Shown here one piece after another: positions 1 to 28,014 of a DNA stretch of 64,000 bases (positions are counted from its first letter, which is position 1; each line of letters begins with the position of its first letter). Below the pieces are notes generated by a model. The model was not told the DNA's origin. It ran no database searches and saw only the letters and a program-made list of their open reading frames with translations. The stretch covers positions 31,183 through 95,182 of the forward strand of contig JAUCBJ010007264.1 in assembly GCA_032718475.1 (NCBI GenBank). Reading direction: 5' to 3'. The position numbers and the translations under genes were made by a program. Origin of the DNA: Nemertoderma westbladi. Lineage: Eukaryota > Animalia > Xenacoelomorpha.

Positions 1-34
1 GCGGCGATTCGCATTTACTTGTGACATCGAGGCG

Positions 35-3000
35 ATGTTCCACCAGGTAAGAGCCTGTAAGGCAGACCAGGATAGCCTTCGATTTCTCTGGTTTGAGAAT
101 GAAGACTTATCCGGCCCAGTGGTTACATACCAAATGTATGTTAGGATATTTGGCGCCCGCGATAGTCCAAATGGCACGCTGTTTGTTCTAAAGAAAACGG
201 CAACAGCCCAGATTGGTAAGTATCCAGTAGAGGTTATCGAGTCTATATTGAGAAACTTCTATATGGACGACGGATTGGTGTCCAAGGACACAGCGGAACA
301 AGCCATAGAAGTGGCTCACGGCCTGCAGGAGTGCTTGGCTACAGGGGTTTTCCTCTAATCAAGTTCACCACTAATTCAGTGGCCCTATTAGAGTCGTTCC
401 CGGTGAAGGATCGCAGGAGCGGAGACATTGAATTGGGGGTAGAACCCATCCCCATGGCGCGAGTACTGGGACTCGCTTGGAATCCGAATACGGACAAGTT
501 CCAGGTAAGAGTTAGATTTGAGCCCAGTAGCCCAGATAAGGTTTTGACAAAGAGAATTTGCTTATCGACATTAAGTAGACTATTTGACCCGATTAACTTT
601 ATCAGTCCGGTAATATTACAGGCACGAGCATGCATGAGAAAAATTTGGTTGTCCGACTTAGAGTGGGACGAACCAATATCTCCTATACATGCAAAGCAGT
701 GGAGAGAGTGGGAAGCCGAGTTGCATCTATTGAAAAACATAGATGTACCCCGTTCCTACTTTCCGAATCAGTTTGTATTTCCAGCTGATTTAGAGCTGCA
801 TATGTTCAGTGACGCAAGTGACACCGGCTTTGGTATGGTAGCCTACCTTCGCCAAGAAGTAAGTCAGGATAAATTTGAGACGGCCTTTGTGACTTCTAGG
901 TCAAAGACAATGCCGGTCAAATACATGACTGTCCCTCGTGCAGAGTTACAGGCGGCAGTAGTTTCAGTTGAGGTAAGTAAGCAGATAACAGAGGAGTTAG
1001 ACACGACATTGACCTTATTCTATTGGACGGACGCATCCTTAGTGTTAGTATATATTGCGGCCGACAATATTGCACTAAAGACATTTGTGGCCAACAGACG
1101 CGCTCAGATCGTCGACTTTTCGACGAAGGAACAATGGAGACATTGTCCGGGAGTGTTAAACCCGGCCGACATAACTTCGAGAGGTGCAATGCCGGCGGAA
1201 TTCTGTCAGGAAGAGTCCCAGGAGTTTTGGTTGCATGGACCTGATTTTCTAACAAGGACACAGGAACATTGGCCAGAGCGATTAAAGATAGTGACCAATC
1301 TGATGCCTGAAGATGCAGAAGTCAAGGTGGAGAAAGTCTCTAAGTCAAAGTCTAAAGCCAAACTCAAGTCATTGGAGCGGCCTGAAGAGTCATTGGAGCG
1401 GCCTGAAGAGTTATTGGAGCGGCCCGGAGACCTGTCAGACCTACAGACTTACGTGACAACTAGGTCTGGAAGAGTAAGTTATGACGTAAAACCACCCTTA
1501 CAGACTACACGAGAGTCACAATTGGTAAGTGACGGACAGAAAATGACCGACACAATGGAGCCTTTGGTTTCCAAACCTGCGGGTTTGGATTCGAAACTTC
1601 CATTAGTTAGCAGACAACCGTCGCTGGCATTAGAGCCATGTAGTATTTATGACAAATTACTAAATTCGTCTGCCTCTTGGCTGACAATTTGTAAAAGAAC
1701 TGCGTGGTTAAGCCGATACATTTCGTACCTTTGTTTAAAACATTCGAAACATTTGGGAGAACAAATGAGCACTAATAGTGAGCGAATTCAGAAATTGAAA
1801 CAACCTCTGACAGAGGATGAAATTGATCAAGCGGAATTAAAGCATTTGAAATATTATCAAATGTGTGCCTTCCCAAAAGAATTCTATCTATTATCGGCTC
1901 AACGACCAGTTCTCTATAAACCCCTTAGAAAATGGAGTCCATTAATCCATAAAGGTTTGATTTATCATAGATCAAGAATCCAGACTGTCGACATAAACTC
2001 ACAGTTTAGGTTCCCAGTGATAATCCCTAATCACCCAATAGAATTGCAAAGAGCGATTCTATGGGATATACACAAGAGGTTGCATCACGCGGGAAGGTTA
2101 CACTGTTTGTCGGCAGCGAGACAGCGATTCATTCTATTGCAGCCAAGCAGGGCAGTAGGTACTATGTACGACGCTTGTCTGGTTTGCAAGAGGGCGAACG
2201 CCAGAGTATTGGAACAGGAGATGGCTGAACTCCCGGAAGCAAGAGTGCAGGCATATGACCCACCTTTTACAAATACAGGGGTGGATTGTTTTGGTCCGAT
2301 TGAGGCAAAGAGTGGACGGCTGACCCACAAGCGATGGGGCCTGCTACTGACATGCATGGCTAGTAGAGCCATACATATTGAGCATGTGGCAGACATGTCG
2401 ACCAAATCTTTCTTAAAGAGATTTATGGCCAGGAGAGGACTAGTAAAGGCGTTCTACTCTGACAAGTGTACAAACTTTGTCGGGGGGAATAGCGAGTTAA
2501 ACAAGGCTCACAAAGCAGCGCAGAATAAAGAAATTTCTGCAGCACTTTTGCCGCAAAGAGTAGAGTGGAGATTTAATACTCCAGAAAGTCCTTGGAGAGG
2601 AGGAAGTTGGGAGCGTTTGGTTCGTTCCATAAAGCAGGCCATTGCTAAGACATTGCCTGTAAACAAACAACTTACCGACGACGAACTGGTCACAGCTTTC
2701 ATCGAAATCGAGCATACACTAAACTCGAGGCCGATAGCTATGTTGCCAGACGGTGTTGCATTAACGCCGAATCATTTGCTAATGCAGAGTCCAGCATTTC
2801 TTGTGCCGGCATCAGAACCCATTAGTGCCGACCTATACAGTCGTAAGAGCTGGAAAGTAACACAATTTGTCGCGTACACATTCTGGGAATATTGGCAGGA
2901 ATACTATCTTCCCACCATATCCACCAGATCAAAGTGGTACAAAACGGTTCGGAGTCTCCAAAGGGGAGATTATGTATTGATAACCGAACCGATTGTCAAG

Positions 3001-3225
3001 AGAAAATATTGGGAGACTGGAGTCATCTTGCACATACACCCAGACGTGCAAAATATAGTGCGCACAGTCACTGTGAAAATTAGGTGCAAGTGTCCGCACC
3101 CAAAGAAGTGTAAAACTAATGGTTTACACACCTTGGACCGACCGGTCCAAGATATCGTGTTATTAGAGGAAACACGCATCGAGACGGGAGATTATAATTT
3201 GTCTCCTACCTCAAAACAGAATTAG
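35..3225 (+). pseudogene. pol: Bel/Pao pol of element A (RT C-half, RNase H, integrase) with a 1-bp frameshift near 345-355
   Basis: MFHQV..LRFLW, YMDD, GFPLIKF (frame switch), FDPINFISP, HMFSDAS, PRAELQAA, WRHCPGVLNPAD, HHAG..CLVC, GVDCFGP, GGSWERL, LNSRP. Confidence 0.95.
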
Positions 3226-3979
3226 TGTTGGACGCAACTCACTTCGTATGCATTCCTTGTATGCAAATACCAGGAAATGCATAGGAGTGGGTTTGCGGTG
3301 ATTTGCGTTGAGTTTTGTCTGGTTGGTATCAAAACAAAATTTTATTTTCAAAATTTTGGAAAATTAAAAAATTTTAAAAAATTAGAAATGAACCCAAGAC
3401 AATTCCAGACGCTGTGTATAGACGCGTTTTAGAATTCGTTTATAGATATACAGTAATTTGAAAAGTCGTGAAGCCTGGAAAATAGCATTTAGAAACCATG
3501 GTGACAGCTATATTACGTAGGAGTGTAAATTGAGTTTAGCAACTTCCACAGATTGGTGCCAACAGTACAACTAAGGTGCTAAAGGTTAGTAGCACCAGAG
3601 ACGTACACGACCCCACTCAGTAGTTTGCAGTGAAGTGAGATGTTCGATTATCAAACCTGTGGGTTTGGTATAGTCGAGCAATGAGACTATTGTCCTTCCT
3701 AACTACTGTAGTTTAGTATGAGTAATGGGAGTAGTTTGGGCATCAAAAAGTGAGTTGGTCACGGCCAGTTTATCTCCAAAGTTTTTGCGCTATGCATGGG
3801 AATAGGTTAGAGGATAGTTAGGAATGAGACGGGATCTAGAGAGTCGAACCTGAACTGCTGGAAGGCGGGGGGGCTCAGGAGGTCTGTCCTTCGGCGACAT
3901 CTAACTGATTTACCCACAGTGTAATTAGTTACGTAACGGAACTTATTGGGATATATAATATGTATATACGCGGCTCATA

Positions 3980-6900
3980 ATGGAGAAGGAAATTAGAGCG
4001 CAACCGCGGAGAGGATTTACTGCTAGAGAGGAGGCGGAACTACCATTTGCCCGACCGGGATGTAAAGATTCGAATGTTTACTATCATGGAAGGTCGTTAA
4101 TGGAGCTAAATGGAAAGTATAAACCTGCGTACGATAAGGAATTAAGGAGAGAAAGAATGAGAGCGTTGGGGGACCGTATGGAAGATTTGCGGAAGGAGTA
4201 TCGCACTCGGTATCCCTACGATTTTGCGTTAGACGTATGCGTCATTAGTGCGGACCCGGACGAGGAGATCGCACGGTTGTACCATATGAACATGTATTTA
4301 CGACACAACAAACCTCTACCTGCAGTCCGAGATCAGTTCGACGGAATGCATCTATACCGGAGGACTCGAGGCGAGGATCAAGAGACGTCAAAGGTCTTCA
4401 GTGTATACAAGTTGTTCTATAAATGTGGTGAATGCATGAACAAACAAGACGTGGCGATTCCCGACCGACTGGACGAGCAACATCCTGAACCGATATTAAC
4501 GCGATGTCAAGCTCACCAGTTCCTTAGATACAACGAGGGAGGTTACCCAATGAGCAACCTGATGATTAGTATCGACTTCAGCAGAAAGCGACCTCCAAGA
4601 CCCATTACGCCGACCGTTACGACATTAGATCCGTATACGGAGATTAAACCCTGTTCGACACTCAGTTTGATAGAGACGGCAGCGGCCATTTCGCTGTACC
4701 GAGCCTACAAGGACCTAGAGGCGCGGCGCGAAGCGGCACGGGACTCGGGTACCAAACCCACGGATTTGGAGCTCTCGAGTCCCTGGACTCCGTTTACTTC
4801 GCCTCATCGAGCGAGAAACCTCACGCCTGAGCATCAGGACGACATAGACGCGTTGCGGCGGAAGGCGAAACAGTTATTCCAAGCACGGGTAGCGGAATAT
4901 AATAAGACCGCGGATAGACATCAGGAGGAGACGAGGAGAGTGACCGGATTTGTTCCACAGGCCTTATCTCAACCCCGACTGGTGTATTATTCCGACGGCA
5001 ACGAACCTGCGATATTGGTAGATCACCCAGAGTCGCGAGAAGCGATTAGATTCTTGCCGATGGTAAGGATGTCGGATCATTGGAATGTCGACTGTCTACG
5101 GGAAGTTTTATGCGCGAAGTTCTTGCGTGATGTCCCAATGCAGATCACGGATTATGACACATTGGACAAGATTGGAGCTCCGGGGAAGGAGAGTAAGTTA
5201 TTCGGATGGTTGGATAAGTACATCAAGGTATGGGTCGCGGTGGCTACGTTCCCAGACGACGAGGAGGTAGACCAGGCATGGCTGAGGAGGAAGAGTTCTT
5301 ACACCCGATATGACGACCACAAGGCTATCGAGCGCATGTGGACCCCATCAGACGAGATTCAGCGTCAGTGGAGGAAAACGGAGGAATCACTACAGGATTG
5401 GAGAGTGATGTTCTACGACAATGAAGGAGGGTCTCATCAGGAATGCTTGACTAGCAAATGCATTCAAATTCGCGCGGCCGACAGTGTGACTCATGTGTTT
5501 ATGCGTGTAAGGGCAGATCGAGAGAGACCGGAGCCCATAATAACGACACAATATCGGAAAGGGAAGGATCCTAGGGAACAGATTTTGGAGGTATGCAGGC
5601 GAGGAGGTATGCATGGAGCGGAGCGTATTGACGCCAGGATGCTACCCAATAAGGTTAGAGAGGCTATTCTCAACCAAGATTATGTCAAGGTGGGATCGGG
5701 AGTCCAGAGCGATTTGGAGAGTGACTTTAACGCCATGACTGATTTGGAAGATAGATTGCCGAGACCATTTGTCGACACCAAGCTATTGTTGCTATGGGCA
5801 CAGGATATTGTAATTTATAGGGAGTATCCCAACTCTGCCAAGACTGGTATGGGCTTCATAGCATATTTGTTGTATAATTGGGACTTTAAGTTGAAGACGC
5901 AGCAGAAGTACGAGGAGGCGTATGGTGAATATAACACGCCACCGGGGGCGGAGTTCAAATCCCACTTCAAGCGGCAAGCGTTAGTGTATTGGAATATTTG
6001 CGCGCCACCCCGTGCGTCATTACAATATTATTTGGTGCTTGAGTCGAACACGGTAACTTGTTTATTAGCGGATATCGTTGCGCGAGTTTTGAAGCGTCAT
6101 CCATTGGTATTCGGAGGAGATCAATACGTTCGTTCGAAAGGGGGAATCCAATCCGACGTGATGAAGCGTTTCTTAACCCCGTTCTTCAACCAATCGTTAG
6201 AGAATACGTCGATGGTTAGGAGAGGATTAGCGATATTCGAAGGGATATATCGACAGAACATCGGAGATTTGGGAGACCGACCGTCGATGGAGAATCCGAT
6301 GCCAGAGGCTTTGGAGAAGTGGTTCGGGAATCAAACCCGCGGGTTTGGTACTCCCTTCCACTCGGAGGCTGATAGACCTGTTAGAGAGGGTTGGCCGGAG
6401 ACGTTAGTAGAGGTGTTTGGAGTAGATCTTCCGGTGGAGAAGACATATCCGAAATGAACGCGGGAGGAAATATTGGAGATAGAGGGCAAGGGCGAGGATG
6501 TTTACTTTGTTCCGGATCGACAACCGCTGACCGGAGAGGACGACATCGTATTAGACATTGGGAAAGAAGGAAGTGCGAAACCGATTGGAGACCTCATATA
6601 CGAGAGGGCCTGGTTTCCACAATCGCGTAGGTGTAAGTTGTGCGGCAGCACAAGGCACAATCAAAAATCGTGCGACACGGTAGTGGAAGCGGCGCATAAG
6701 GTTTGCCGTTGGTGCAATGAGACCGACCATTCGTTTCATACATGCACCGTCTTCATTTCTCAATGTGGATATTGTGGAGTAAAGGGACATCGTAGCGCGA
6801 GATGCCAACTGCGAGACGATTCCTTCCAAAACCATAGCGCTAACCTACTTCGGGAGATGCTAGATAAGTGGGAGAGTGTGGCTGACTACCACATCCAAGC

Positions 6901-7672
6901 GCAGATGCGTTGGTTACCATTTAAGGCGGGATATGGATTTTGGGCAGTAGACCCATCACACGTTGCATATGAGCCATATCTACAGTCGTTACCACAATAT
7001 CAGGAGCTCATACTAACCGCTCAAGACCTTCCACAGAACACTGAAGTCATCGTTGTTCGGGAATACTTCAGACAATTGAACATGGATAACAAGTACACTT
7101 GGAACTTTGTTGCTATTTGCGACCGCATAACGAAAGGTCTGTTTTCGGAAACTAGAAAAGTGGTGCGCGCGCGAAGAGATTGGAGGATGGCGGCTATACA
7201 GTACCGCAACGAGTTCCTATTGACTCACGTACCAGTGGGGTCATTGACCGCTAAGAGGATCGACGAACAGCGAACCGCAGCGCCCACAGCGACGACCGTT
7301 GGAGCTCAAGGCTCACGGAAGGAACCAAGAGGAGAGGTCCAAGACAAGCGTCAAGTCAAGGACGATCACTATCATTCTATTATAGAGGCTCAGCGATTGC
7401 AACGCAAGGCGCAAGGGGCGTCGGAAAAGGCCTGGGTGCAATTGCAGAAGGAAGAGTTGGTGGAAGCGACCACAGGAGCATGACAATTGGGACGAGGCCG
7501 AGGGAGAAGTACGAGCCGGGAATCTGTCGGGGCTCAGGGAACATCGTCGCCGGTTCCGGGGAGTGACGCCTCGCGGACAACGTCAACAGAATCGACTGGA
7601 GGACGGTTGGTGTATCTGGGAAGGGGGCAGAAGAGAGAAGCGAGCCCAAAGAACCCAGGAGCGGGTCGGTAA
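3980..7672 (+). pseudogene. Element A ORF2: CxxC/CxxH finger + DEDDy-type 3'-5' exonuclease + 3 CCHC knuckles, broken by in-frame TGA at 6455 and 7481
   Basis: ORFs 3980-6457, 6473-7483 and 7487-7672 share one frame. ExoI FYDNEG (5411-5428), ExoII KVGSGVQSDL, FVDT, ExoIII W..PRASLQYYLVLE (~6041). Knuckles CKLCGSTRHNQKSC, CRWCNETDHSFHTC, CGYCGVKGHRSARC. Colinear with 41559-45551. Confidence 0.85.
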
Positions 7673-8194
7673 TGCATACATATCACGGGGCGACAGACTC
7701 TAGATATATACATCATCGTCGCTCTGATGTATATTGTAGCATTTTCGTAAATATCCGACTGGACTCATATACACTAGTCGTACCTATTTGAATTTATGTT
7801 ATGAGAGAGACGAAGGAGGTGATTGGGGAGACAAACCTGCGGGTTTGGCTTACTCCTTTCACCTGCCCTAGCAAATTTTTATATATTGTAAAAGTGAATA
7901 TTTTTGTAAATTTAATTTGTATGTAGTAATCATTATGTAGAACGAATGAGAAACAGTATTTGTAAATTTAATTTGTATGTAATAATCGTTAACTTTGAAA
8001 GAGATAATATTTTGTAAATTTAATTTGTATGCAATTCATTATGCAATATCTATAGCAATATTTGTAAATAGTAGAGTTATTATAGTTATTTAGATTATTT
8101 TAAAAGCGAATTATTTTGTTTGTATACATCGCCTTATACTCTTCTACAATTGGAGGGAAACATTGTATGATTTCCCTCGGAGCAGTGTTACGGT

Positions 8195-11026
8195 ATGTGG
8201 CGCTGTACATATATTAGTCCGTCGATAGACGAAGAACCGTCGATAATACCGGCATATAAGATGGTAGTACAAAACATGGGGGCCAAGTCGTCTTCATTTA
8301 CGACGACTATGGCAGTGAGGGACACAGTGAAAGGGAAGGAAGATAGATACAGCAGTAGGGCCGTCGATATGATTCGACGTGGCTTCTACGTAGACGACGG
8401 AATGGAATCTGGAAATACGGTTAAGGAAATACTGGACACAGGGCGCGAGGTTCGCGACATCCTAAAAGGATCCGGTTTTAACCTGACCAAATTCCAATCC
8501 AGTTCGGAAGAATTTATCAAGGCGATAGAGGACAAGAGGCCAGAATCGACCATGGATAATCCCACAACGGCCAAAGGGCAGGACATGGCGATTAAAAGAA
8601 CAGAATCTCAACAGAAGGCATTGGGAATCGTGTGGGATAGAGAGACAGACGAACTTAAATATCAGCTGAGCCAAGAGGGCGCAGACATCCACACGAAGTG
8701 GGGCTATGTATCGTATATAGCAAGGATATACGATCCCCTAGGCCTAGCATCCCCATTATTAGTCACGGGTAAACAGATACTCAAAAGAGTATACAAATTG
8801 AAGGATGAGTGGGACGTAGAGGTACCAGAGGAAATCAAGAAGCAGTGGAGCAAGTGGACAAGAGACTTGGAGAAGATGGGAACATACAACTTGCCCCGAG
8901 TGTATTTCCCGGATGGGAACATCACGAGTCTGGACCTACACATGTTCTCCGATGCGTCGTTGGAGGCGTACGGAGCGGCACTCTATTTAGTACAACGAGA
9001 GGGGGCTCATAAGCCCAGACTAGCCTTTAGCAAAGCAAAGTCAACGCCGCCAGATTCAGCATCAGTTCCCAAGTTAGAATTGACAGCTGCGAGACTAGGA
9101 GTTAGAGCCACAGCCTACCTAGTGGATACTATTCCCAACATAGTGGAGACACACTACTGGACGGACTCCATGGTAGTGCTTGGTTGGCTACATAACGAAA
9201 GGACGAGATACCCGATATTCGTCGCAAATAGAGTGGACGAAATAAGGGCGACCACAGAACTGGAAAGGTGGCACTACTGCCCAACAGACGAGAACCCAGC
9301 GGACTTGCTGTCGAGGGGCGTAGAACGCCACACTTTCCTGAAGAAGGAAGTATTGTGGCAGCATGGGCCACAATTTCTGAGCGATAAGGAGGCCTGGCCG
9401 CCGATGAGAAAGGTGGATCCGGGCTCAGAAGTGGTATCAGAAGGAGAAGAGGGAGATTCAGAGGGAGAAGAGATATACTCCCAGATGGTGAGGGAGATTA
9501 GGGACGTGCAACCAGGACGAGAACTGTGCGATAACCCGACGGATAAACTCCTCAGCTACAGTTCTAGTTGGTATAAGACCAAGAAACTAGTGGCGTACTG
9601 GAGAGCCTTCGGGAATTTCCTTGCGGGAGTTGGCAAGGACAAGAAGATCAGGACAACCATAGATCTGGAAGGAGCGGCCAAGGCAGTGATCCGCTATGAA
9701 CAACGGAAGAACTACGGCGACGAGGTGGAACGCGTCGGTAACCAACAGCACCTCCGACGGGACAGCGAGCTGATTACGCTGTCGCCACAACTCAATGACG
9801 ACGGGATTCTAGTAATGAATTCTAGGGTGGGATACAACAACAGCATAGTCGTACCACCGAAACCCATCATCATTCCCACGGGATCGCCAATAGTCCACCA
9901 GATTATCTGGGACTCCCATAAGTCGATATTGCACGGGGGCACCAACCGAACCCTCACAGAGATAAGGAGGACCTATTGGGTCAAACAATTAAGGAAGAAG
10001 GTTAAAGCGGTAGTGGGGCAGTGCCAGACCTGCCGACGAGCGAAGAAGGAGCGAGCCGTACAGGAGATGGCGCCACTACCGGCGAGTAGGGTAAGACAGC
10101 ACGACCCGCCATTTACGCATTGCGGTGTGGACATGTTCGGGCCGATAAAGATCAAAGTGATGCGACACACGGAGAAACGCTACGGCATCATCTTCGTATG
10201 CAACAACACACGGGCGGTAGGGATAGAACTCGCCCAAGATGCAACTGCATCAGCATTCATTAATGCCTTAGAAAGGTTTAGGGACCGCAAAGGTGGGACG
10301 ATCGCAGTGATATACAGCGACAACGGCACCAACTTTGTGGGCGCAGAGAGTGAGATGGCAGAGGCCTTGGACATCTTGGAGGGAGAAGAAGTCAGGGCAG
10401 CCATGAGGCGACGACAAGTAAAGTGGGAGAGAAGGACGCCGTATGCACCACATACACTAGGGTGCGTCGAGAGACTGGTGGGCAGTTCAAAGCGTCTAAT
10501 GACGAAGCTAATGAACACCCACATGGTCACTGAGGACGTCTTACGGACAGTACTTGCGAAGTGCGAGGGGATCATTAATAGCAGACCGCTATATCCGGAG
10601 AATGATGACCCTGAGTCGTTAGACGTGCTGACGCCTAGCCATTTCCTGATGGAAAGGCCAGCGACCATCGATATGCGGGGTGTAGACCCAGATGACATAC
10701 ACTCCCGCCAAAGTTGGAAAGTCGCTAAAGCAATAAGCGCAGAGTATTGGAGGAGGTGGGTAGAAGAATACCTACCCACGCTCCATAAGCGAAGCAAGTG
10801 GAGGAAGCCGAACAGGGAGTTAAGAGTAGGAGATCTCGTAATCGTTACGGATGATACTATCATCAACAACCAGTGGCGGTTGGCGAGAGTTGTAGGCACC
10901 TACTCCGATGAGGACGGAAGTGTCCGATCGGTAGAAGTGCGGGTAGGTGGTAAGATAGGTGCGAAGGACAGGAAACCCTACAGGAGAGCAGTAGGCAAAT
11001 GCTGTCTGCTAGAAGGAGCACCTTAA
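8195..11026 (+). CDS. pol: Bel/Pao pol of element B (partial RT, RNase H, integrase); the first ~20 codons are probably junction sequence
   Basis: FYVDD, GFNLTKF, YDPLG, HMFSDAS, VPKLELTAA, ENPADLLSRG, HGG..CQTC, GVDMFGP, SDNGTNF, VERL, INSRPL. Confidence 0.93.
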   Translation: MWRCTYISPSIDEEPSIIPAYKMVVQNMGAKSSSFTTTMAVRDTVKGKEDRYSSRAVDMIRRGFYVDDGMESGNTVKEILDTGREVRDILKGSGFNLTKFQSSSEEFIKAIEDKRPESTMDNPTTAKGQDMAIKRTESQQKALGIVWDRETDELKYQLSQEGADIHTKWGYVSYIARIYDPLGLASPLLVTGKQILKRVYKLKDEWDVEVPEEIKKQWSKWTRDLEKMGTYNLPRVYFPDGNITSLDLHMFSDASLEAYGAALYLVQREGAHKPRLAFSKAKSTPPDSASVPKLELTAARLGVRATAYLVDTIPNIVETHYWTDSMVVLGWLHNERTRYPIFVANRVDEIRATTELERWHYCPTDENPADLLSRGVERHTFLKKEVLWQHGPQFLSDKEAWPPMRKVDPGSEVVSEGEEGDSEGEEIYSQMVREIRDVQPGRELCDNPTDKLLSYSSSWYKTKKLVAYWRAFGNFLAGVGKDKKIRTTIDLEGAAKAVIRYEQRKNYGDEVERVGNQQHLRRDSELITLSPQLNDDGILVMNSRVGYNNSIVVPPKPIIIPTGSPIVHQIIWDSHKSILHGGTNRTLTEIRRTYWVKQLRKKVKAVVGQCQTCRRAKKERAVQEMAPLPASRVRQHDPPFTHCGVDMFGPIKIKVMRHTEKRYGIIFVCNNTRAVGIELAQDATASAFINALERFRDRKGGTIAVIYSDNGTNFVGAESEMAEALDILEGEEVRAAMRRRQVKWERRTPYAPHTLGCVERLVGSSKRLMTKLMNTHMVTEDVLRTVLAKCEGIINSRPLYPENDDPESLDVLTPSHFLMERPATIDMRGVDPDDIHSRQSWKVAKAISAEYWRRWVEEYLPTLHKRSKWRKPNRELRVGDLVIVTDDTIINNQWRLARVVGTYSDEDGSVRSVEVRVGGKIGAKDRKPYRRAVGKCCLLEGAP

Positions 11027-11180
11027 CTTGGAGTTAGAGTAGAGTTTAGTCGTCCAAGATTTGGACTGAGGGGGGTGGGATTGAGGGCGAGACGCCCTTC
11101 CCACACAAATAAAATAAAAATAAAATAAAAATAATAAGTACACAGTAGGTACGCAGTTAGTAGGCAGAAGTTAGTTAAGA

Positions 11181-11685
11181 GGTACGTAGTACCTAGTTAG
11201 TTAGTTAGTTAGGAGGTACGTAGTACCGATAGTTAGTTAGAGAGTTAGAGGGTACGTAGTACCGATAGTTAGTTAGAGAGTTAGGAGGGTACGTAGTACC
11301 GATAGTTAGTTAGAGAGTTAGAGGGTACGTAAGTACCGATAGTTAGTTAGAGAGTTAGAGGGTACGTAGTACCGATAGTTAGTTAGTTAATTAGGGGTAC
11401 GTAGTACCGTAGTTAGTTAGAGAGTTAGAGGGTACGTAAGTACCGCTAGTTAGTTAGAGAGTTAGAGGGTACGTAAGTACCGTTAGTTAGTTAGAGAGTT
11501 AGAGGGTACGTAAGTACCGTTAGTTAGTTAGAGAGTTCAGAGGGTACGTAGTACCGTTAGTTAGAGAAGAGTTAGAGGGTACGTAGTACCGTTAGTTAGA
11601 GGAGAGTTAGAGGGTACGTAGTACCGTTAGTTAGAGAAGAGTTAGAGTTAGAGGGTACGTAGTACCGTTAGTTAGAGAGAGAGAG
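11181..11685 (+). repeat. Tandem array of about 14 units of ~35 bp, each with the hairpin GGTAC-GTA(A)-GTACC followed by (TTAG)n/AGAG
   Basis: Read directly; lies just after the pol stop of element B. Confidence 0.9.
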
Positions 11686-12178: not shown

Positions 12179-12988
12179 GCAGCCTTAGACGAACTTCGTT
12201 GGGCTTCGTCAGGGAGTTCGGGGGAGTCTCTAGGGAAAGAACTGGGGTGGACGGTGGGATCACCGAAACAGTCGACGTCGGGATTGCAAGCGATGCCCAT
12301 ACCAGCGGGCGCCGAGGGCGAACAACCGCAAAGGAAGTTAAGGGAGTTGGAGGGATGGAGAGCTACGGGCGAGAGCCAAGGCGGGAAGGGACATAGTGGG
12401 TCCACCGGGATACCGGGGTTGGGACCACTGCGAGAGGAGGACGAGGACGACGACGAGTTCGGAGAGATGCCGCCCATCGAGAGGATAGGCCACTCGGACA
12501 CGGACTGGGTTGGCGGGAGGGTGGTGACGGCCAGTGGGGCGAGAGCCTTCTGGGACAAACCCGGCAAGCGGGCCTGGGTGCACGAGGAGCCGGCGATGGA
12601 TTTCGCGGGGAGCACTATCAGGTTGGGCAAGCAACCGGGGACGGCACCACGGGTAGTATTCGGAGAGACGATGCCCGGGAGGGGCGAGGAGATCGACGTA
12701 GACAGGGACGCTAACGTCTAGAAGTTCGCCTATCAGCGACTCCACAGACCGCGGAGATCGCTTGGGATGAAAGACGACGTGGGGCGGGAGACATTGGTAC
12801 TCGGTTGCGGCTACTGTGGGAGACAGACCCACCAGGAAAGGAGCTGCTTGTACCGGTTCCAGAAAGGGACCAGCTGTCTCTACTGCCACGAGACGAGCCA
12901 CAGGATGGGAGCGTGTCCACGGTTGCAGAACCGATGTCCGAAGTGCAACTTTCGGGGACACCACGGACGCCAAGGAGGGATGGACTGA
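12179..12988 (+). pseudogene. Element B ORF2 remnant with a triple CCHC knuckle module and no exonuclease
   Basis: ORFs 12254-12721 and 12767-12988 share a frame, split by TAG. Motifs CGYCGRQTHQERSC, CLYCHETSHRMGAC and PRLQNRCPKCNFRGH match the knuckle block of A and C. Confidence 0.7.
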
Positions 12989-13636: not shown

Positions 13637-13674
13637 ATGCTATCTTCTTACCGGGAAGATAGCATGGGGGGGAG
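13637..13674 (+). promoter_or_regulatory. Hairpin plus polypurine tract of element B
   Basis: Inverted repeat ATGCTATCTTC/GAAGATAGCAT, then GGGGGGGAG directly before TGTTAG. Confidence 0.8.
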
Positions 13675-14938
13675 TGTTAGCTTATTCAATCCCGCTAACA
13701 CCCCATAAAGTTTAGCCAATAAGCAATATTGGGAGCCACGAGATTGGGTAATTAACCAACTCGTGCCATCCCAATAAGAATGGGAAGGAAACGCACAATG
13801 AGGGTCAGGGGCCAAACCCCTAACCCAGAGAGAACAGGTGGAGTGAACGGGAACACTCCAAAGGGCGCCAACAAGGGTATCAACCAATCAGAGGGGGGAA
13901 AGGCATCGATTAGGTAGAGTAACAAGGCCAACCGTGCAATATAGCCACTTGGCAGTAATCATATCAATTCAGTTATCTCAGTGCAATACTGGTGCTAGTT
14001 TAGGTTACATAGTTTAGCTAGGGAAGGACCGGGACTTTAGTTACCGTATCCCGCCTTCCGTGTACAACAACAATATTATCTCATATCTATATCTGTATCT
14101 ATATCTCTATACCCAAACATTATATACGACGAACAGCACAAACTCATTCACTCTTTACACACGGCGGGGACGCGTAAACTAACAACGGATAAACCGGGAT
14201 CCCTCTTGGATCCCGTCACAAGTACGCTGTAACATATTTGTGACTGTAATTAATTAGTAAAATTAAGAATTTGTACGCAGCATAGCGGAGAGTAGTTAAG
14301 GTAGTAATTTGGAGTACCGTACACTATTCACGCTGGGCGGTTATTTAATTAGCGGACAATAAGTTAGATCGCAGTATACAGTACGCAACACGCATTAGTA
14401 ATTTTGCTGGTCTAAAGCCAGCCGTAGGCAAGTTTAGTCCCACAGCAGGTATTAGCCCCAAAAAAGATACTGTACTAGACAATTTGATTATTTAAATATT
14501 CTCACATTCACACATTCCGTTAGGGAACCCCAGTCTTTGCGATTAGATTAGATTAGAAAAGACGTAATTGTTAACGCGTTTTAGCAGCAAAATTAGGCCG
14601 CAGGAATACACTCTGAGTGTAGAGCCTCTCACACTCGTCTTAAGTAAGCTTAGGGAGCCGATTCGGGTTTATTGTTTTGGTTATTCCCGCGTGGCTCATA
14701 TATTCGAACAGTTAGCTCTCTATTGAGTAATCGATAGAGAAAGGAACGAGAATTTAGCAGGAGCAGTAGAAATTAGGGAAATATATTAGCGGACGGCAGG
14801 TTAGCGCCATCCAACGGTGAGTAGCGGTTTTGTATTTAGCAGCCCTACATTAGCAATTACACGCTCCTGATTGCCCTGTTTAATAAATAGAGCAGTTTTG
14901 TGTCTTTATTGGTTAGGCCGGGTAGTTTGTTCGTAACA
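13675..14938 (+). repeat. 3' LTR of element B (~1.26 kb)
   Basis: Starts TGTTA after the PPT and ends TAACA; AATAAA at ~14882. No partner LTR in the window to confirm the end. Confidence 0.7.
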
Positions 14939-19221: not shown

Positions 19222-21900
19222 TGACGAAATCTGTCAGCTGATTTCTTGTGGACGTGGAATTTCTTTGTTCTGCCTTATTCAGCCAATCAGAGCAATTTTC
19301 CCTTTATGTCTGACAGAGGCCTATGGAAACTCGCGCAATGCACTACGGTCTTTGTTTACTATTTTTCTGAGCATCAGAACCGGCTCGGAATTTTCTGTGC
19401 TTCTGTGTAGAAGTTTCAGACTTTGGCCTAGGAAACATCAGATGGCCTTGATTATAAGAACGTAAATCTATTATCCTACTTAATCACCGCATCACATTTC
19501 ATCATTATCAACTGCATTTCATAACTGCATAAGTAACACATACTGACTGTTCACCGCATTATTTTACTTCTGTTATTAATTGTTGTTATATTAATGGATA
19601 TTGCTGTTATATTTGGAGAATACCGATAAATAATCATAAACCCGTCAATCTTCTTGATTACTGAGGTAAGAGGAACAGGTTTACCGGTAGCAACTGCGAC
19701 TTAAATTATAGTGGTTTTTGTGTGAATTAAATGCTATTTCATAATCCCTACGTGTGTCAGTTGCTATCCTCCTTATATATGATCAAATTCAGTGACGGTC
19801 GGCAGATCAGTGCTAAGTAGTGTGAAGTAGTGTGAAGTCGTGTGAATTAGTGTGAAGGTTAATAAAGCATCTCCTAAAGAATGCGCTATTTACGAAACTC
19901 TGTGGCCATCTAGTTGTGATTAGTATAAGTCATAACTCTGTTTTTATACTTAAAGCGCCACGCCCTAAAGGAACTGTTAATATTTCCCCGAAAGTAAATA
20001 TATTTGTCAGAGATTATATAGTAACGATCAATTGAATAATACAGTAGGTCTACACTGCAATAACTCTCAAGGAATCCGAATCCAGTCTCCCAAATCGTGG
20101 GTGATAGGTCGCGCACGGACTGGCTTCGGCTGATGTAACTTCAGTACACTAGATAATTGATATAGGCTAAAGTCGATTTATAAACAAGAGGACAACTAAA
20201 ATTGGCAGGTTAAACTGCTAAAGGTCTAAAAGCGCGAACAATAATAGATTTAAGTATCTTTATTGCGCCGTAGGCAATAAAGTCAAATGTACCGGTCGGA
20301 CGGTAAACTGTAGGCCTAACTGCCCAACCACCTGAACCGGTACTTACAGGTACCCAGTATTATTTCGATTGTGATATATTGTATAATAGTAGGCTGTTTA
20401 AGAGAGTAGGGACTGTACAGTACACCCCTTATTTCTTTTAGAGCTTATTTATTTCTGTCAGTTTTATTTATCTGTAAGTGGAATATTGAGCAGAAGGCGT
20501 GTAAGCCTGCTCAGATTGTATAAATAATTTGTAGGCCGGATTGTTGTCTAACTGTTGTTAGGTCTGAGGCAATTGCAGTGTGTGTAGAGTGTCTGTCCGA
20601 TAAAGTGCTAGTTAGGAAGGTGGGGGCATCCAGTGCTGTAAGGTAAAACCCCCCCGAAAGAATAAGTCATAGTACTTGGTTAGAATGCCTACTAACTAAC
20701 CATTTCGGAGTCTGCATATACTGTAGTAAATTTAGGCTTGACAGTAGTCTGCCAGCATTTGGTCTGTGTTTTATTTGAATAGTCTGCACGGGTAGCGTAA
20801 TATTTATTATTCAGAGTCTATGCGAGTATTCGCAACCTCCAACTCCCCAAGTTTATTCCTACAGTAATTGTGCTTGTTATACATACCGTTATAGTTAAAT
20901 TAACCCCGGTACTACATCAGGGCTGCTTGGCGTAGGTAAAGACTGGTGATTTTGTGCTCCGGTCACTCCAGCAGATACCATGGTTCTTTTGGCTGTTCAA
21001 GTATATTTAACTGCTGGTTATTTGTTGTATAAGTACTTGTACCTAATTTAGGGTTTAGGGTACAGTGCTTTCCGAAAGTAATTTAGTGTGTAGGCAGTAT
21101 ATTTGTGTTGTAAGTGGTTAATAGGCACGTTAGCTCTGGTTGGCTTCGGTAATTAACCTCTAGGTAGGGACATTCCGGGTACATAACGTAGTACTTATAG
21201 AGCTAAGACTATAAGTAGTCAGACGGTGGTATTTCCTTATCTGGACAACGCAACTTACTTACTACTACTTTATTGTTTTCAACTACCGTAGTTTCCTGTC
21301 AGTTTGTAAGAACCAGAAATTATAACTCCTTGTTAGGCTGGTTTGTAGATTTCTTATAAAATTACCCTAAAAATTGTACGTGTAACTTGTTTATTGTTTA
21401 TTTAGAGATTGTAATCTCAACCTGTTGTAATTGTAAGTAATTTGTAGTGATAAGTAACTTAGTAAAGTAGAATTATCTGTATTAGTGTCCAACAAGTAGC
21501 ACTCCACTGAGAGCGTTCAGCTTCTGTGTAGTGACTCCTTATCCAGAAATAATAACATTTATTTCAAATATTGTCAAAAACCCATTGTACGGGTATATAT
21601 ATATTTATAAATCAACTCAAACAGATTTATAAAATAGTAGGCCTGTTATAAATCAATTAGGTCTTAATATCAGTTGAACTACTGCTTAATATCAGTAATA
21701 AAGTAAAGGGAAGTAACCCTAAAATTCAGAAATTCAGTTATTATAAAATAATTGACATTACCGGTATTTACGGTAAGCTTACTATATTTATATAAATTTA
21801 GGCTGAAATTATATACCGGTATTCTGTGACTGAACCTAGTCTGTAAATAATACTTATATATATACTATAAGTGTATACCGGTAGTTTAATATTATATATA
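19222..21900 (+). mobile_element. Truncated C-family element E: 5' LTR (~19222-20240) plus 5' leader, no coding region
   Basis: LTR TGACGA...GCGCGAACA is homologous to 40053-41008 and 63282-64000. 20800-21900 is homologous to the C leader at 55460-56807. Confidence 0.85.
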
Positions 21901-22002
21901 TTTTGTGGAGGAGTTTAATAATAATGTGAGGACGTTAACACATTATATGTGATATATATTATATAACAGAGTTAGTGTTAACAATATGAAAGGGCTACTG
22001 CG

Positions 22003-22570
22003 ACTACTACTAAGATCGACATGCTGCAATGCAGCCGCATTTTTAAGAATGCTGTGCCAACTTGTCAACAAAATTGCGCCGCCACAACTCCCAATCACCC
22101 ATGTCATTTGCAAGATCATCCGCATCTTCAAGGCCACTGTCCTTTAAGATGCGTCTCAAGAAAGTCATGGGCTGTCCACCATGCTTATTCACTCCATGAG
22201 GCTGCCAAAGTACAAGATTATGCACTGGCTGGTCCTCACGGCGAAAGCAATGTCCTGCAAAGCGGAGGCGATTTTGTTCTAGTGTCAAGCTTGGGGGAAC
22301 CAATGAGACACATCCAATGTTATGTAGTGTCTGGTTGGAGGTGTGTGCATTGTACTTGACACAATGAACCCGGCGTAGCATTCTTGTGAATGTGCCATCC
22401 AGAGATTTGGTGTCCTCAGCAGTTAGACCCCAGCATGGACTCCCATAGAGGAGTACTGGAACTACTGCTGCTCTATATAATCGGACCTTAAGTTTCCGAT
22501 TAATTCTCGGTGACTTCCAAATCCTGGAAAGCCTATTCAAGGCTGCCCATGCCTTTCCCTTACGGATACG
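22003..22570 (-). mobile_element. RTE-clade LINE 3' fragment with (TAG)n tail
   Basis: IWKS..RKLKVRLYRAAVVPVLLYG..W..TRMLRR..RLRFAGHCFR; near-identical to the 3' end of 28400-30465. Confidence 0.9.
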
Positions 22571-22759
22571 GATAGGGGATCACGTTTCACGTTGCCCTGT
22601 TACGTATCAGTATCATCATATGACATGACATTACTGTAGTTGTGAACGGTAACATACATGACAGGGAACCAATCAGAAGTAAGGGTACAACTGTATCACA
22701 CTGTACTGAGTATATATAACTAGGTGCACCTTTTACGGAAGATGGTAAGATGTCTTCAG

Positions 22760-23585
22760 TCATAAATATCCAGGTAAAACGCTGTGAGGATGCGGCCAAT
22801 AAATTCGCGATTTTCTGTGCGGAAACATGCCCTTTGCCTTGAAACGTGCTGGAAGGTGCCTTACTTGCGACGGTATTTTACAGGTGCGAAGCCTGGTTGA
22901 GCTCTAATGTTAAAACAATTGAGCGTCTATATATGAAGATGATTGAATGCCTGTTGGGGGTAAGAATACAAACTCCGAACGATATGTGTCTAGTCGAATT
23001 AGGAATGCCATATGCTCTGGATAGGATTCGGGAAGCGCAAAAACGTTTCGGACAAAATATGCTAAAGTTAGCTAACAGTGATATAGCGTATGTACAAGTG
23101 ATGGAGATCTGTAAAAATGCTAACACTAAGGGTTTTAAACACCCAGAGGCTGTTGGACAACAGTCTGAAAAGGGGACAAGATGCAAAGCAATTGACAATA
23201 TAAAATTGAAGCCCAGTTCAGCTACCAAGTTTCAGACATACTGTACTTAAAGACATTGAATGTAGATAGCACTGTACACAACACCAAACTACATCCCCGA
23301 TTATAAGCGGAAGGCATTTAGTCGGCTCCGCCTTATCTCGCACAACCTACGCATTGAAACGGGACGATGGAGTAGAACAGTCCGGGGGGAACGTGTGTGT
23401 GTGTGTGTGATGGCTTTTCTGTTCAGGATGAATCACATGTGCTACTGTCGTGCCCAATTACTGAGACAGAATTACTGAAACCGTCGATCTGTGTTTTGCG
23501 AGTATTGGGAATCTTTTTGGGTCTAAGAACTGTGTAAGCCTGTGTAATTATGTAGATAGGGTTTTTGATTGCATCCGTAGTTAAA
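22760..23585 (+). mobile_element. Degenerate LINE ORF2 3' end (RTEX/L2-like) with C-terminal CCHC
   Basis: YRCEAW..CLLGVR..TPN..ELG and RLISHNLRIETGRW..RVCVC..DESHVLLSCP. Confidence 0.7.
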
Positions 23586-23708
23586 AGGTAAGTAGGGTAG
23601 GTCCAATGGACGTCTTGTTATGGACGTCTTTTTAGAGATGTTGTAAGGATTACTTTTTTGGATAATTTTCAGTATATGATCATATTTTCTGTGCTGTTTT
23701 TGTAAAAT

Positions 23709-24196
23709 GTGGCGGCCACCCTAGAAACGTACCTTAACGTAGAGAACATAGTTCTGAGATAAACGCATTTAAAGTTTTTACCTTGAAAATTTTGTTAAAT
23801 TTTTTAAATTTTTTAAAATTTTTTAGCAGCTGATTCTACATTCGCGATTTCAGCCAAATTCGGACAATTTCAGCCAATTTCAGCCAAAATATGACTCACC
23901 CCCAGATGGCTGACTGATGTCCGAAGTCCAATTTTTCGTCCAAATATATGCCAATTTGAGCTAAAATCGGCCAATTTGAGTCAAAATGAGCCAAATTAAA
24001 ATTTTCAACTTTTTGACAAAAATGTCAAAAATTATTCGAAAAGTGTTTTAGAAAAACGGCCATATCTCACAAACCAAACAAGATCTCGCTTAGCCGTTTT
24101 CATTTTCGAATTCTACGGAAAATTCTGCATCGAATGAAGCAATAAAACAAAAATTGACATTCCTACGCTAAGGTCTGTTTCTAGGGTGGCCGCCAC
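23709..24196. mobile_element. Non-autonomous DNA transposon (MITE), Sola-like
   Basis: TIR GTGGCGGCCACCCTAGAAAC / GTTTCTAGGGTGGCCGCCAC flanked by a 4-bp AAAT duplication (AWWT). Superfamily inferred from the TSD only. Confidence 0.8.
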
Positions 24197-24620
24197 AAAT
24201 GTAGTTGTAATAATTATCAATAAATATATAATATATATATACAAAGTACAATAATTTTGGCAACCTCATCGATTTATACTAAGCCTGTGTAGAAATCCAT
24301 TACATAAGGCATTATTCATCTTCAACACCAGATTTTATTGGTGATATTTTACCATTGCGTCTATGGCACGTTTCGTTTATTTCATTTTTTGCAAAAACTG
24401 ATGACTGTATTTTTCTGAAAATTGCTTTATACACCCATTCAGACCATACACTACAGGAGGGTACTAAAAACAACACAATTGACCGGATAGTTTCGGAGCC
24501 TTTCGTGTGACAAACAGACAGTCAGACAAACAAACAGACATGATTTTCTTACAGTAAGTAAATCTGAAGATTTAAAAAGAAAATAATACAGCCTTTGCTG
24601 CAATATTTTGGTAAATCTTT

Positions 24621-24884
24621 TGGACGGATCCATACTGGATGTTGGACGGATCCATACTGGATGCTGGACGGATCCATACTGGATGTTGGACGGATCCATA
24701 CTGGATGTTGGACGGATCCATAATGGATGTTGGACGGATCCATACTGGATGTTGGACGGATCCATACTGGATGTTGGACGGATCCATACCGGATGTTGGA
24801 CAGATCCATACTGGATGTTGGACGGATCCATACTGGATGTTGGACGGATCTATACTGGATGTTGGACGGATCCGTACTGGATGT
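24621..24884. repeat. 22-bp minisatellite TGGACGGATCCATACTGGATGT x12
   Basis: Direct count: 264 bp. Confidence 0.95.
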
Positions 24885-25337
24885 CCTTATTTCTCAAACG
24901 TGTTTGTTTGTTTGGTTGTTTGGTTGTTTGTTTTGTACACACAACTTCTTGCACTTAATGTTGATGGATTTGGATGAAACTTTGATGATAGGTTCATTAT
25001 CGGACCTAGTTGTGTATGGAAGGTTTTGGTTACTAGGGACCTGTTGGTTGCCTAGCAACAGTGAAATTAATGACCGATCATAATCGTAGGATACACTCAA
25101 TCAAAATTTTGTCGACACCCCAAAAGGAGCACCTATTGGTCATGCTTTATGCGAAATTTCGCTTTATTTCATTTAGAATTGTAGGAGAAGATTACAATTT
25201 ACATACTGAATTTACATACCTTGTAGCTACAGTGGATGAAAAATATTTATAGATAAATCATCTACATTAATTGATAATACTATCACCATAGATAACATAA
25301 CTATTGACGTAGTCCGCATAATTAGTATCCAAGCAGA

Positions 25338-26079
25338 TTAGCAGTGACGGCCGCATTGGTACAAAGTGGATCCCATTAAATTCCAAGTGCCACTGTGCCA
25401 TTCCTCAGTTTCACTTTCATAATAACACTTCATGCCAGGGCAATCTTCCTTATATAGTTCGTTCTAACAAACAATAAATCATCACAAACAAAATTAATCG
25501 TAACAAACTAGTAATTTATCTAAACCTTAACATTATCCACCAAATCCCAATTTACTGTAGTATATCGATTTTGTATATAAACCGCAAGTACGAATAATTA
25601 TATTTGATATATTAATAATAGATATTGCCATATTGGGCTAAATAGGATCTGAAATCCTTATAGGGGGAAAGGAGCAGGTTACAGTGGAACGCTATTTTAA
25701 CCAAAACAATAAACTAGCACAATAGAACAGGTTACAGTTATATTTTTGAGAATAATCAGCTGTTATTTGCGTCGAATTTCCCGATTACTTTTACGTAATG
25801 AGGACACCCACTCACTACTCTTAAACAACAACAGCGTATACTACGAGAACGTATGGTAGTCGATTATCGCCTTGGATTATCCTATTTGAGATTCTTACCA
25901 ACCTGAGAGCAGCATTTTGTACAGGTGAGTTTATCTCCAAAGTGGCATTTCTGATTCCGCTCGGCAACGTCCAGGAATGCATCAGCCTCAGACTTGTTTA
26001 CCTCAGGGTGAGGGAGTTCCCGTCCAAGGGTCATACAGATGTGTAACAATACAACAGATAATATCAACATAGAGTTCAT
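25338..26079 (-). CDS. Secreted cysteine-rich peptide precursor, copy 1 (exons 26079-25903 and 25463-25338; 100 aa; 8 Cys in mature part)
   Basis: Signal MNSMLILSVVLLHICMTLG, propeptide ending VAER, mature NQKCHFGDKLTCTKCCSQ|NELYKEDCPGMKCYYESETEEWHSGTWNLMGSTLYQCGRHC*. Phase-0 GTTGGT donor and TGTTAG acceptor. Confidence 0.75.
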
Positions 26080-27170
26080 TTTGTATAGTTCTAACTTCAA
26101 CCTGGATTTGTTTTTACTATGTAAAAGATATACCAGTACTGTATACAACAAACTAGTTTTAATAGTAAAAAAATATTGTCTTATTTCGCAATAGCCTAAA
26201 TATTTATTTAGATGAGGCGATCTGACAATATCGCGTGGCTTTTGTCTGAGTTCTTTAATAATCGTAAATCATTATCCGAAATTGCAATATGTGACTTCAG
26301 TCAATTCTACTGTACTGTATTGCAGGGGGTACCGATAAAGGTGGTGGTGATACGGGTGTAATATACAGATATTGTGGTATTATCAGCCATTTTTATGCAA
26401 TAAATTATTTTCCGCGCAGCTCGCCAGATCGCCAGCGAGAGTTTTATTGTCTATAGTCTACGGATACTGGGCATTTGGTGGGTAGACCAAATAGTAGACC
26501 AGGCATAACATTGTAACTACGGTGGTCACAATAATGTGGGCCTAGTAATAAAGTAATCATGTAATAATTAAAGGTAGTCGGTTATAGTCGTAGTCTGATG
26601 AACATTCATTGTTAGCAAGACATGTGCTGTAATATTGCACATTAATTAAAATAGAATTCAGATTGATAAATCTAAATTAAATCGTATAATCAAGGTGCAA
26701 CATGAATTTAACATTAACTTACCGCAATACAATACAATACATGGCTTAGATTAATTTTTCCCATTAAATTTATAATGTTCATTTTGTGTTAATAATTGAT
26801 GTAATGTTTTGAAACAGGTAACTAACTCTCTGGGTTTGAACTTGACGACAACTGACATACCTAATTTCTTCGAATAAGAGCCTGGGCGTTTAAGTTTATA
26901 AATTGGGGAGCTGTTTATTCGAGGGGGACGTTTATTCGGGGAAGGCGTTGTGGTTGGAGTGGGGGGCAATTTTGTTTATATTCTAGATTTTCAGCATTTT
27001 GAATCTAACCTAATAAATAATTTTGTTAAATTCAAGAAAACAAGTTAAACAAATAAAATAATTCAAATAAAACCAGGATTATATTTATTGCACATACAGC
27101 CTACTACCGCGCTACAACACTCTACAGTATATTTACCTTCAGTCACATGACATTTGGCCCTATATATTAA

Positions 27171-27988
27171 CCCTTTCGGTACCTAACTGGAAATTATTTA
27201 AACCCCCAATTGCCCAACTCTAATTCATGAATTTCTGAAGTCTGTCAGTCTTTCTGTCAGTTTGTCTGTCAAGACTTTAGAAAGAATAAAATCTACTAAC
27301 ATTCTCGCTAAGGGGGTTTTCCTTGTCAAGGATTTCATTTCCGCTGTGAGTTTTCACTTTTGACCCTACCCAGACTGTCTGTCGGTCTGTCTGTCGGTCT
27401 GTCTGTCAGTCTGTCCGTCAAAAGTATAAGGAATCACATTAGCTAATTAAAATTCTTGCTATGGGGGTTTTCCTGGTCAAGGATTTCATTTCCGCCGTTA
27501 GTTTTCACTTTTAACCCTATGCAGACTGTCTGTCGGTCTGTCTGTCTGTCAGTATGTCCGTCGAATATATAAGGAATCACATTAGCTAATTAAAATTATC
27601 TCTATGGGGGTTTTCCTTGTGAAGGATTCATTTCCGCTGTCAGTTTTCACTTTTGACCCTATCCAGACTGTCTGTCGGTCTGTCTGTCGGTCAGGCTTTT
27701 TTGTTTAGGCTGTTTAGTCAGTTTATGCCTACCTTACTGCAGTACTGTTTTATTCTGTTATTGCTAAAGTCTGGCAGTCTGTAAGCAGGTCGGCAGTAGG
27801 CCTACCGGTAGTTAAATTACAGTAGATACAAGCTGAAATGCGCCGCTAACATATAGAAGCATGTACTTAATAATAATAGTCCAGCAACATTTTCCCTACT
27901 TAGATATCGAATAAATGTCATGGAACAGACGTGTGTGTCATGGCGCAATACCCATGGAACAGACGTATGTGCCATGGTACCGAAAGGG
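27171..27988. mobile_element. piggyBac-type non-autonomous element with three internal ~130-150-bp tandem units
   Basis: TIR CCCTTTCGGTACC / GGTACCGAAAGGG with TTAA on both sides. Clean empty TTAA site in the duplicate at 39555-39558. Confidence 0.92.
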
Positions 27989-28014
27989 TTAATGATAATC
28001 GTATCCGACAGTGA

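Follow-up and report, generated by a model that had tools for sequence, protein, structure and literature searches.

Our results support a model in which two distantly related BEL/Pao retrotransposons of Nemertoderma westbladi carry an inherited accessory gene whose product is probably a knuckle-guided RNA exonuclease that aids the element. Both lie in a 64,000-nt stretch of contig JAUCBJ010007264.1 (positions 31,183–95,182, forward strand), hereafter the window, in whose numbering all coordinates are given. This animal DNA is rich in repeats and contains the remains of four BEL/Pao elements, recognised by the Pfam domains Peptidase_A17, DUF1759, Integrase_H2C2 and DUF5641, and two of these, element A (1–about 8215, + strand) and element C (55345–41213, − strand), have a second open reading frame (ORF2) behind pol. 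ORF2 of A runs from the ATG at 3980 to the TAA at 7672 (+, 1230 codons), and that of C occupies 45551–41292 (−, 1419 codons) with the same domain order. In A, a conserved N-terminal domain (4205–4717) is followed by a predicted DEDDy-type 3'–5' exonuclease domain (5396–6139), three CX2CX4HX4C zinc knuckles (6632–6805) and a short conserved post-knuckle segment that ends near 7110. The exonuclease-like core of C lies at about 43430–42690 and its knuckle region, in which the first knuckle is irregularly spaced, at 42221–42024.

The initial annotation of this DNA had proposed that the two frames are copies of one gene that align block by block in protein and have no long DNA identity, and our comparison bears this out. 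Self-BLASTN gave no match between them, while all ten block pairs that it had listed are present in the same order (residues 355–964 of A, 590–1197 of C). BLASTP aligned the cores over 478 columns at 25% identity (E = 5e-35), the knuckle regions over 179 columns at 24% (E = 2e-15) and an N-terminal segment absent from that list over 177 columns at 31% (E = 3e-14). Relative to 300 shuffles, z-scores were 28 for the N-terminal domain, 46 for the exonuclease-like core, 12 for the knuckles and 9 for the post-knuckle segment; the segment before the core that holds the first block pair (AIRFLPMV/SLRFLPLI) reached just 2.7. The homology extends beyond the knuckles, given that a whole alignment scored 370 even with the knuckles masked, whereas the best of 100 shuffles reached 60. 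Across 890 aligned codons, identity at positions 1, 2 and 3 was 45, 53 and 27%, with matches at 33 of 102 fourfold sites, a pattern that indicates conservation at the protein level with saturated silent sites. Because of this saturation, a ratio of nonsynonymous to synonymous substitution rates is not meaningful at such divergence.

The same annotation had treated 3980–7672 as ORF2 of element A, which holds as far as homology to C is concerned and fails as a single open frame, since stops interrupt it at 6455–6457 (codon 826) and 7481–7483 (codon 1168). ORF2 of C is likewise interrupted twice, at 44264–44262 (codon 430) and 41561–41559 (codon 1331). The stop positions are non-homologous between the two copies, each copy has two stops where about 65 (A) and 73 (C) would be expected from composition, and the exonuclease-like core sits in a stop-free stretch. 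Neither protein has a transmembrane segment (highest 19-residue Kyte-Doolittle mean 1.34 in A and 1.19 in C), so ORF2 is not env-like.

Both ORF2s stand 3' of a YMDD-type pol with Pao-type Pfam domains, as had been noted, in the same orientation, and each is followed by a candidate polypurine tract. The 3' part of the A pol (1–3225, +) encodes reverse transcriptase (YMDD at about 260–271), RNase H and integrase, with matches to Peptidase_A17 (E = 1.7e-39), Integrase_H2C2 and DUF5641; it is broken by a frameshift near 355, and its 5' part lies beyond the window edge. A non-coding spacer of 754 nt (3226–3979) separates it from ORF2; the corresponding spacer in C is 1639 nt. In element C, gag with DUF1759 and knuckles, a weak aspartic protease-like stretch (E = 0.2), reverse transcriptase with YMDD, RNase H and integrase (47194–55345, −) follow one another in the BEL/Pao domain order (Peptidase_A17, Integrase_H2C2, DUF5641), of which A shows the 3' part; stops and frame changes interrupt the gag-pol of C. 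Of the four pols in the window, those of A and C are most alike (39% identity, against 25–32% for the other five pairs, over 456 shared columns), and an unrooted four-taxon tree groups AC|BD with an ultrafast bootstrap (UFBoot) value of 100.

Contigs from three DNA sequencing runs (two samples, two studies) covered 30 of 30 bins over the pol, spacer and ORF2 of A, at a summed depth that is very high and gives no copy number. Of 79 indels in these contigs, the 12 listed comprised none in ORF2, nine in its non-coding flanks and three in pol. The protein-level conservation, the small number of stops, the pairing with the two most closely related pols and a third protein of the same architecture, described below, together support the view, already put forward in the initial annotation, that ORF2 is an old, selected accessory gene rather than a one-off transduction. 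It may nonetheless have been exchanged between element lineages, as is proposed for the DEDDy ORFs of rotifers in the available part of PMC5408684.

What the core might do had not been named in the initial annotation. Our comparisons predict a divergent DEDDy-like 3'–5' exonuclease of the RNase D/EXD2 type, with YxxxE instead of YxxxD in the ExoIII motif. The putative motif residues of A are D480 and E482 (ExoI), D578 (ExoII), a D-T motif at 599 and Y684xxxE688 (ExoIII). Among 18,950 NCBIfam models, the C core matched two, both RNase D (E = 0.003 and 0.019). When a profile built from 20 RNase D domains of bacteria was run against 273 six-frame ORFs, ORF2 of C ranked first (E = 5.6e-5) and that of A second (E = 1.3).

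A single further relative was found by HMMER among 1.84 billion representative proteins (E = 4.4e-9), a singleton of 648 residues that is encoded on a 9,449-nt contig and is here called P0001. Its layout is the same, with three CCHC knuckles behind the core, and this core aligns with those of A and C at z-scores of 25 and 26; the P0001 post-knuckle segment alone gave no significant alignment with either (z = 1.7 and −0.9). In the three-way alignment of A, C and P0001, D62, E64, D130, D147, Y229 and E233 are invariant. With P0001 added, the profile-profile probability of a match to RNase D rose from 64% (A and C) to 85.5%, and an hhalign run of the three sequences gave 87% (E = 3.9e-6, 147 columns), its score being 43.8, whereas 40 column shuffles reached at most 24.8. 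That run places ExoI, ExoII and Y-x3-E onto their RNase D counterparts. The ExoII aspartate aligned to that of RNase D in three profile comparisons and is present in all three sequences, as is Y-x3-E, which falls on the YAA-D of RNase D. Given the glutamate in this last motif, we describe the core as DEDDy-like and not as a canonical member of the family.

Relatives beyond P0001 were not recovered. Word-based homologue searches found none for residues 155–560 of C, none for the A and C profile and only P0001 itself when P0001 was the query; none of 345 candidate metagenome contigs and none of 149 and 16 viral contigs held an ORF2 relative. A search based on the integrase returned two of 114 metagenome stretches and none of 51 viral ones; one of the two (L145) has no long ORF in the approximately 2.3 kb behind its integrase, and the other (L144) ends within it. 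PHROGs gave nothing useful for ORF2. A sequence search of the Protein Data Bank had suggested rotavirus VP4 as a relative of the core (E = 0.019, then 0.25 with a profile), which we judged to be chance.

Structural comparison points in the same direction as the sequence profiles. The P0001 model, built with A and C as alignment rows, shows three strands, a helix, a strand, a helix and a strand over residues of about 43–147; no known exonuclease was part of the folding alignment. Foldseek returned 31 matches to it at E ≤ 0.001, led by EXD2 (1.5e-5) and followed by Egalitarian, Exd1 and trypanosome RNase D, with Rrp6, NrnC and Nibbler further down; judged from their titles, all of the rows listed are DEDD-family proteins or complexes. 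With VIA-align, diDNases, RNase D, EXD2 and Nibbler had Z-scores between 9.1 and 8.0 at a root-mean-square deviation (rmsd) of 4–5 Å (best match Z = 9.1, rmsd 4.6, 155 aligned residues; RNase D Z = 8.3, rmsd 4.1, 152 aligned), and 49 of the 50 rows listed are DnaQ-like, again by title. In the ESM Atlas, the P0001 core scored 0.94–0.95, and 25 of its 30 matches belonged to a set in the best cluster of which 34% of members carry PF01612. These comparisons suggest, at low confidence, a DnaQ/RNase H-like fold for the core. Sequence profiles, structure search and language-model features, each modest when taken singly, agree on one family.

Several results weigh against this assignment and against a working gene. 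No curated family passes its cut-off on the core: Pfam has no match on A or C, NCBIfam none on A or P0001, and PF01612 reaches E = 0.2 on P0001. A second profile, made from 40 bacterial PF01612 domains, detected none of the three sequences. In ExoI, the IDVE of P0001 aligns on the RNase D DTE, whereas the placement of the A and C YDNE depends on the alignment (matched in the three-way alignment and not in a shorter one), and pairwise local alignments begin after this motif; the sequence support is concentrated in ExoII, and the canonical Y-x3-D of ExoIII is absent. An AlphaFold prediction for A with C as its alignment gave no usable model, with a predicted local distance difference test score (pLDDT) of 29, and that for P0001 averaged 35.8, with only residues of about 43–147 at 50–70. 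The structural argument therefore depends on the P0001 model, which A and C enter as alignment rows. The Foldseek rmsd values are large (9–36 Å), the VIA-align Z-scores lie near the background of 7–8 stated for the tool, and the C core had no ESM Atlas match at 0.9 or more. Furthermore, P0001 is considered here as a protein alone, both copies of ORF2 in the window are broken by stops, and internal ORF2 deletions occur in low-depth contigs.

The N-terminal domain, whose CxxC...CxxH pattern is common to A and C and could be a metal site, had no informative match in Pfam, NCBIfam or PHROGs. The knuckles of P0001 best match retroviral nucleocapsids (E = 1e-4), with Air2 at only E = 0.064. The knuckle triplet of ORF2 (6632–6805) is weakly similar to that of the C gag (52100–51900, −), with a z-score of 5.4, against 13.7 between the two ORF2s, and the module may derive from gag.

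Element B (8171–about 13700) may have retained a reduced version of this accessory gene. Behind its pol, a short frame (12179–12985, +; in-frame stop at 12719–12721) ends in a triple CCHC knuckle and has no exonuclease-like domain. Its knuckles score z = 9.8 against those of A and 7.1 against those of the C ORF2, compared with 4.2 and 0.8 against gag knuckles, and a GGGGGGGAG tract plus TG lies downstream at 13666–13676. Judging by element B, the knuckle module may be able to survive on its own. A tandem array of units of about 36–37 nt occupies 11156–11685, between the B pol and the knuckle ORF, and is followed by TATATAA near 11700.

We propose that ORF2 would be transcribed separately from a promoter in the spacer behind pol, that its three zinc knuckles would grip single-stranded RNA and that its metal-dependent 3'–5' exonuclease core would trim RNA 3' ends to the element's benefit. 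A promoter of its own is possible: TATATAA shortly precedes ORF2 in both elements, in A at 3952–3958 just before the first ATG. The DNA upstream of the two ORF2s is not significantly alike (219 of 300 shuffles scored as high). As to the target, host small RNAs or silencing intermediates, in a form of counter-defence, are a tentative choice, slightly favoured because several host DEDD-fold proteins act in small-RNA pathways. Nibbler is one of them. EXD1, Maelstrom and mut-7 are others, according to the available part of PMC5408684. The element's own transcripts rank slightly below host small RNAs and are a rather doubtful target. We regard as similarly speculative a fuller version of the counter-defence idea, in which a deep BEL/Pao lineage would carry a self-targeting RNA-decay machine, composed of a knuckle adaptor and a D-E-D-E exonuclease, that destroys or mis-trims host PIWI-interacting RNAs, the frame in element B being a reduced module.

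The alternative that survives best, although we consider it unlikely, is that the exonuclease is active inside the particle on the products of reverse transcription, where it would trim the ends of the complementary DNA (cDNA) or remove mis-incorporated bases while nucleocapsid-like knuckles bring the enzyme to the genomic RNA, in parallel with the exonucleases of large RNA viruses. Element C measures 14,133 nt from the gag ATG to its candidate polypurine tract and is thus at least 14.1 kb long, above the 4.2–10 kb given as a descriptive range for the family (ICTV profile, PMC8742986). DEDDy ORFs are also found in Terminons, which can reach 40 kb (PMC6431247), and a fidelity role has been suggested for DEDDy domains in large RNA virus genomes (PMC8297929). 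The nucleocapsid-like knuckles of P0001 and the DNA-acting enzymes among the structural neighbours also fit this possibility. However, much of the extra length of C is ORF2 itself, the protein is encoded separately and has no demonstrated way of entering the particle, element B retains knuckles but no nuclease, and the sequence matches are to RNase D.

Less likely still is that the DEDD fold has little or no catalytic activity and acts instead, like Egalitarian or EXD1, as an adaptor that binds RNA and would carry or shield that of the element in the germ line. The change of the ExoIII aspartate to glutamate in all three sequences is consistent with such a role, as is the presence near the top of the Foldseek list of Exd1 and of Egalitarian, which binds I-factor and mRNA localisation signals, and the knuckle-only ORF of B suggests that RNA binding alone can be kept. 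Retained metal binding is nevertheless a better fit to four acidic positions and a tyrosine that stay invariant at an overall identity of only 20–30%. It is very improbable that the core resembles a DEDD domain by chance or that ORF2 is a separate mobile unit behind both pols, for even though all library matches fall below curated cut-offs, no pair of long terminal repeats was found to bound either element and between pol and ORF2, too, there are G-rich stretches with a TG behind them, three kinds of comparison converge on one family, ORF2 is placed and oriented alike behind the two pols that are most closely related, and contig cover is continuous across the junctions.

A candidate polypurine tract of A (8152–8160, +), with the TG of a 3' long terminal repeat (LTR) at 8164 and the element running to about 8215, and one of C (41213–41221, −), also with a TG start, were picked by eye; both (41221–41214 for C) failed a stricter scan, which the tract of B passed. 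Element B truncates A near 8210–8220, and one contig matches the window to 8207 and then diverges. A repeat search and self-BLASTN within the window found no LTR pair bounding A or C, of which A exceeds the window and is cut by B, and C is interrupted by other repeats on its 5' side. BEL/Pao elements are characterised by flanking LTRs of 0.2–1.2 kb, a polypurine tract of about 10 nt ahead of the 3' LTR and a primer-binding site for tRNA-Arg or tRNA-Gly; in A and C, the 5' ends where such a site would lie are missing or obscured. A repeat of about 690 nt (40049–40718, 63278–63968 and 19563–20240) was rejected as the LTR of C, with three scattered copies at 70–77% identity. This repeat is non-coding, and its copies share a common sharp end.

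Elsewhere in the window, element D (58696–63306, +) has a single open gag-pol frame of 1536 codons, in which YVDN replaces YMDD, and ends truncated within the integrase. A 1.1-kb inverted copy (20798–21875 and 55732–56807, 87%) of AT-rich sequence upstream of the C gag, with repeated ACCGGT units, is either a separate repeat or part of the C leader. An intron-less ORF amid repeats (33097–33819, −) has the domains of an RPA-interacting protein (PF14768, E = 1.3e-11; PF14766, E = 0.027) and is either a host gene or a retrocopy; the adjoining fragment at 32018–32836 resembles reverse transcriptase, is Penelope-like by eye and has no Pfam match. Fragments at 28756–30193 (+) and 56956–57576 (−) resemble, also by eye, reverse transcriptase and endonuclease of non-LTR (RTE-type) elements. 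A segmental duplication of about 5–6 kb (21995–28488 and 34899–40055, 94–98% identity) contains a 22-nt tandem array. No tRNA or Rfam match was found within the window.

DEDDy-like ORFs are already known from bdelloid rotifers, where they are carried by the Juno and Vesta lineages, which are Ty3/gypsy-like, or by Penelope-like elements, in contrast to the BEL/Pao carrier found here. As described in the available parts of the sources, they form the ORF3 of Juno and Vesta, both LTR retrotransposons, and of Athena/Terminon elements (Rodriguez et al. 2017, PMC5408684; PMC6431247; PMC5718144; PMC6338049), have a DEED motif and no demonstrated activity, and are proposed to come from a shared ORF pool (PMC5408684). 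ORF2 resembles the rotifer ORF3 of that account in being a separate ORF 3' of pol with an RNase D-like DEDDy fold, here a predicted one, an altered acidic motif and no transmembrane domain. It differs in the motif itself, which is D-E-D-E (ExoII D, ExoIII E), and in its size (1230–1420 codons), N-terminal domain and triple CCHC knuckle, whereas a Cys-His-Cys motif is reported for Vesta2 and Vesta5 only (PMC5408684, in part). This comparison is by description, our searches having returned no rotifer ORF3 sequences.

Within its own family, ORF2 has a counterpart in position only. The profile of Belpaoviridae names only gag, pol and env-like genes (PMC8742986). Elements with a third gene share with A and C the domain content and order of gag and pol and have, like them, an additional gene placed after pol and ahead of the 3' end (PMC8742986; de la Chaux and Wagner 2011, PMC3118150, the latter in part); there, however, the third gene is env-like. 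Our full-text literature searches revealed no BEL/Pao element with an exonuclease ORF, although an earlier description in nematode Cer elements or in Repbase is possible. Some Cer elements are said to have an accessory region beside env. The available parts of PMC3118150, PMC2774666, PMC11662393 and bioRxiv 10.64898/2026.03.22.711591 describe no such ORF, and the word "exonuclease" does not occur in that of PMC3118150.

Cellular DEDDy nucleases and their derivatives (RNase D, Rrp6, EXD2, WRN-exo, Nibbler/mut-7, EXD1 and Egalitarian) share the predicted fold and the ExoI/II/III layout with ORF2, which differs from them in its identity of less than about 20%, the long insertions in A and C, the ExoIII YxxxE and the fused triple knuckle. 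Rrp6 pairs with the knuckle protein Air2, and the exonuclease-knuckle pairing of ORF2 is similar. No single cellular donor stands out, as the structural rows are tied. A further parallel is found in the closterovirids, in which a captured DEDDy gene of the WRN class is also an accessory ORF of a large RNA genome, although these are plant RNA viruses whose domain has a clear WRN_exo match (E = 5.6e-40) and for which no knuckles are reported (PMC8297929, in the available part).

The role of extra genes other than env in retrotransposons is an open question, and the rotifer DEDDy ORFs have never been shown to be active (PMC5408684, in part). Our work extends DEDDy accessory ORFs to another retrotransposon superfamily and adds two features that bear on function, namely long selection on putative catalytic residues and a knuckle module suggestive of a nucleic-acid substrate. 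Should that substrate be small RNAs, ORF2 would amount to a counter-defence enzyme encoded by a transposon; should it be cDNA, to a proofreading-like aid in a long retroelement. Compared with these known systems, DEDDy ORFs 3' of pol have precedent in rotifer elements, and what is new here is the BEL/Pao carrier, the fused knuckles and the YxxxE motif.

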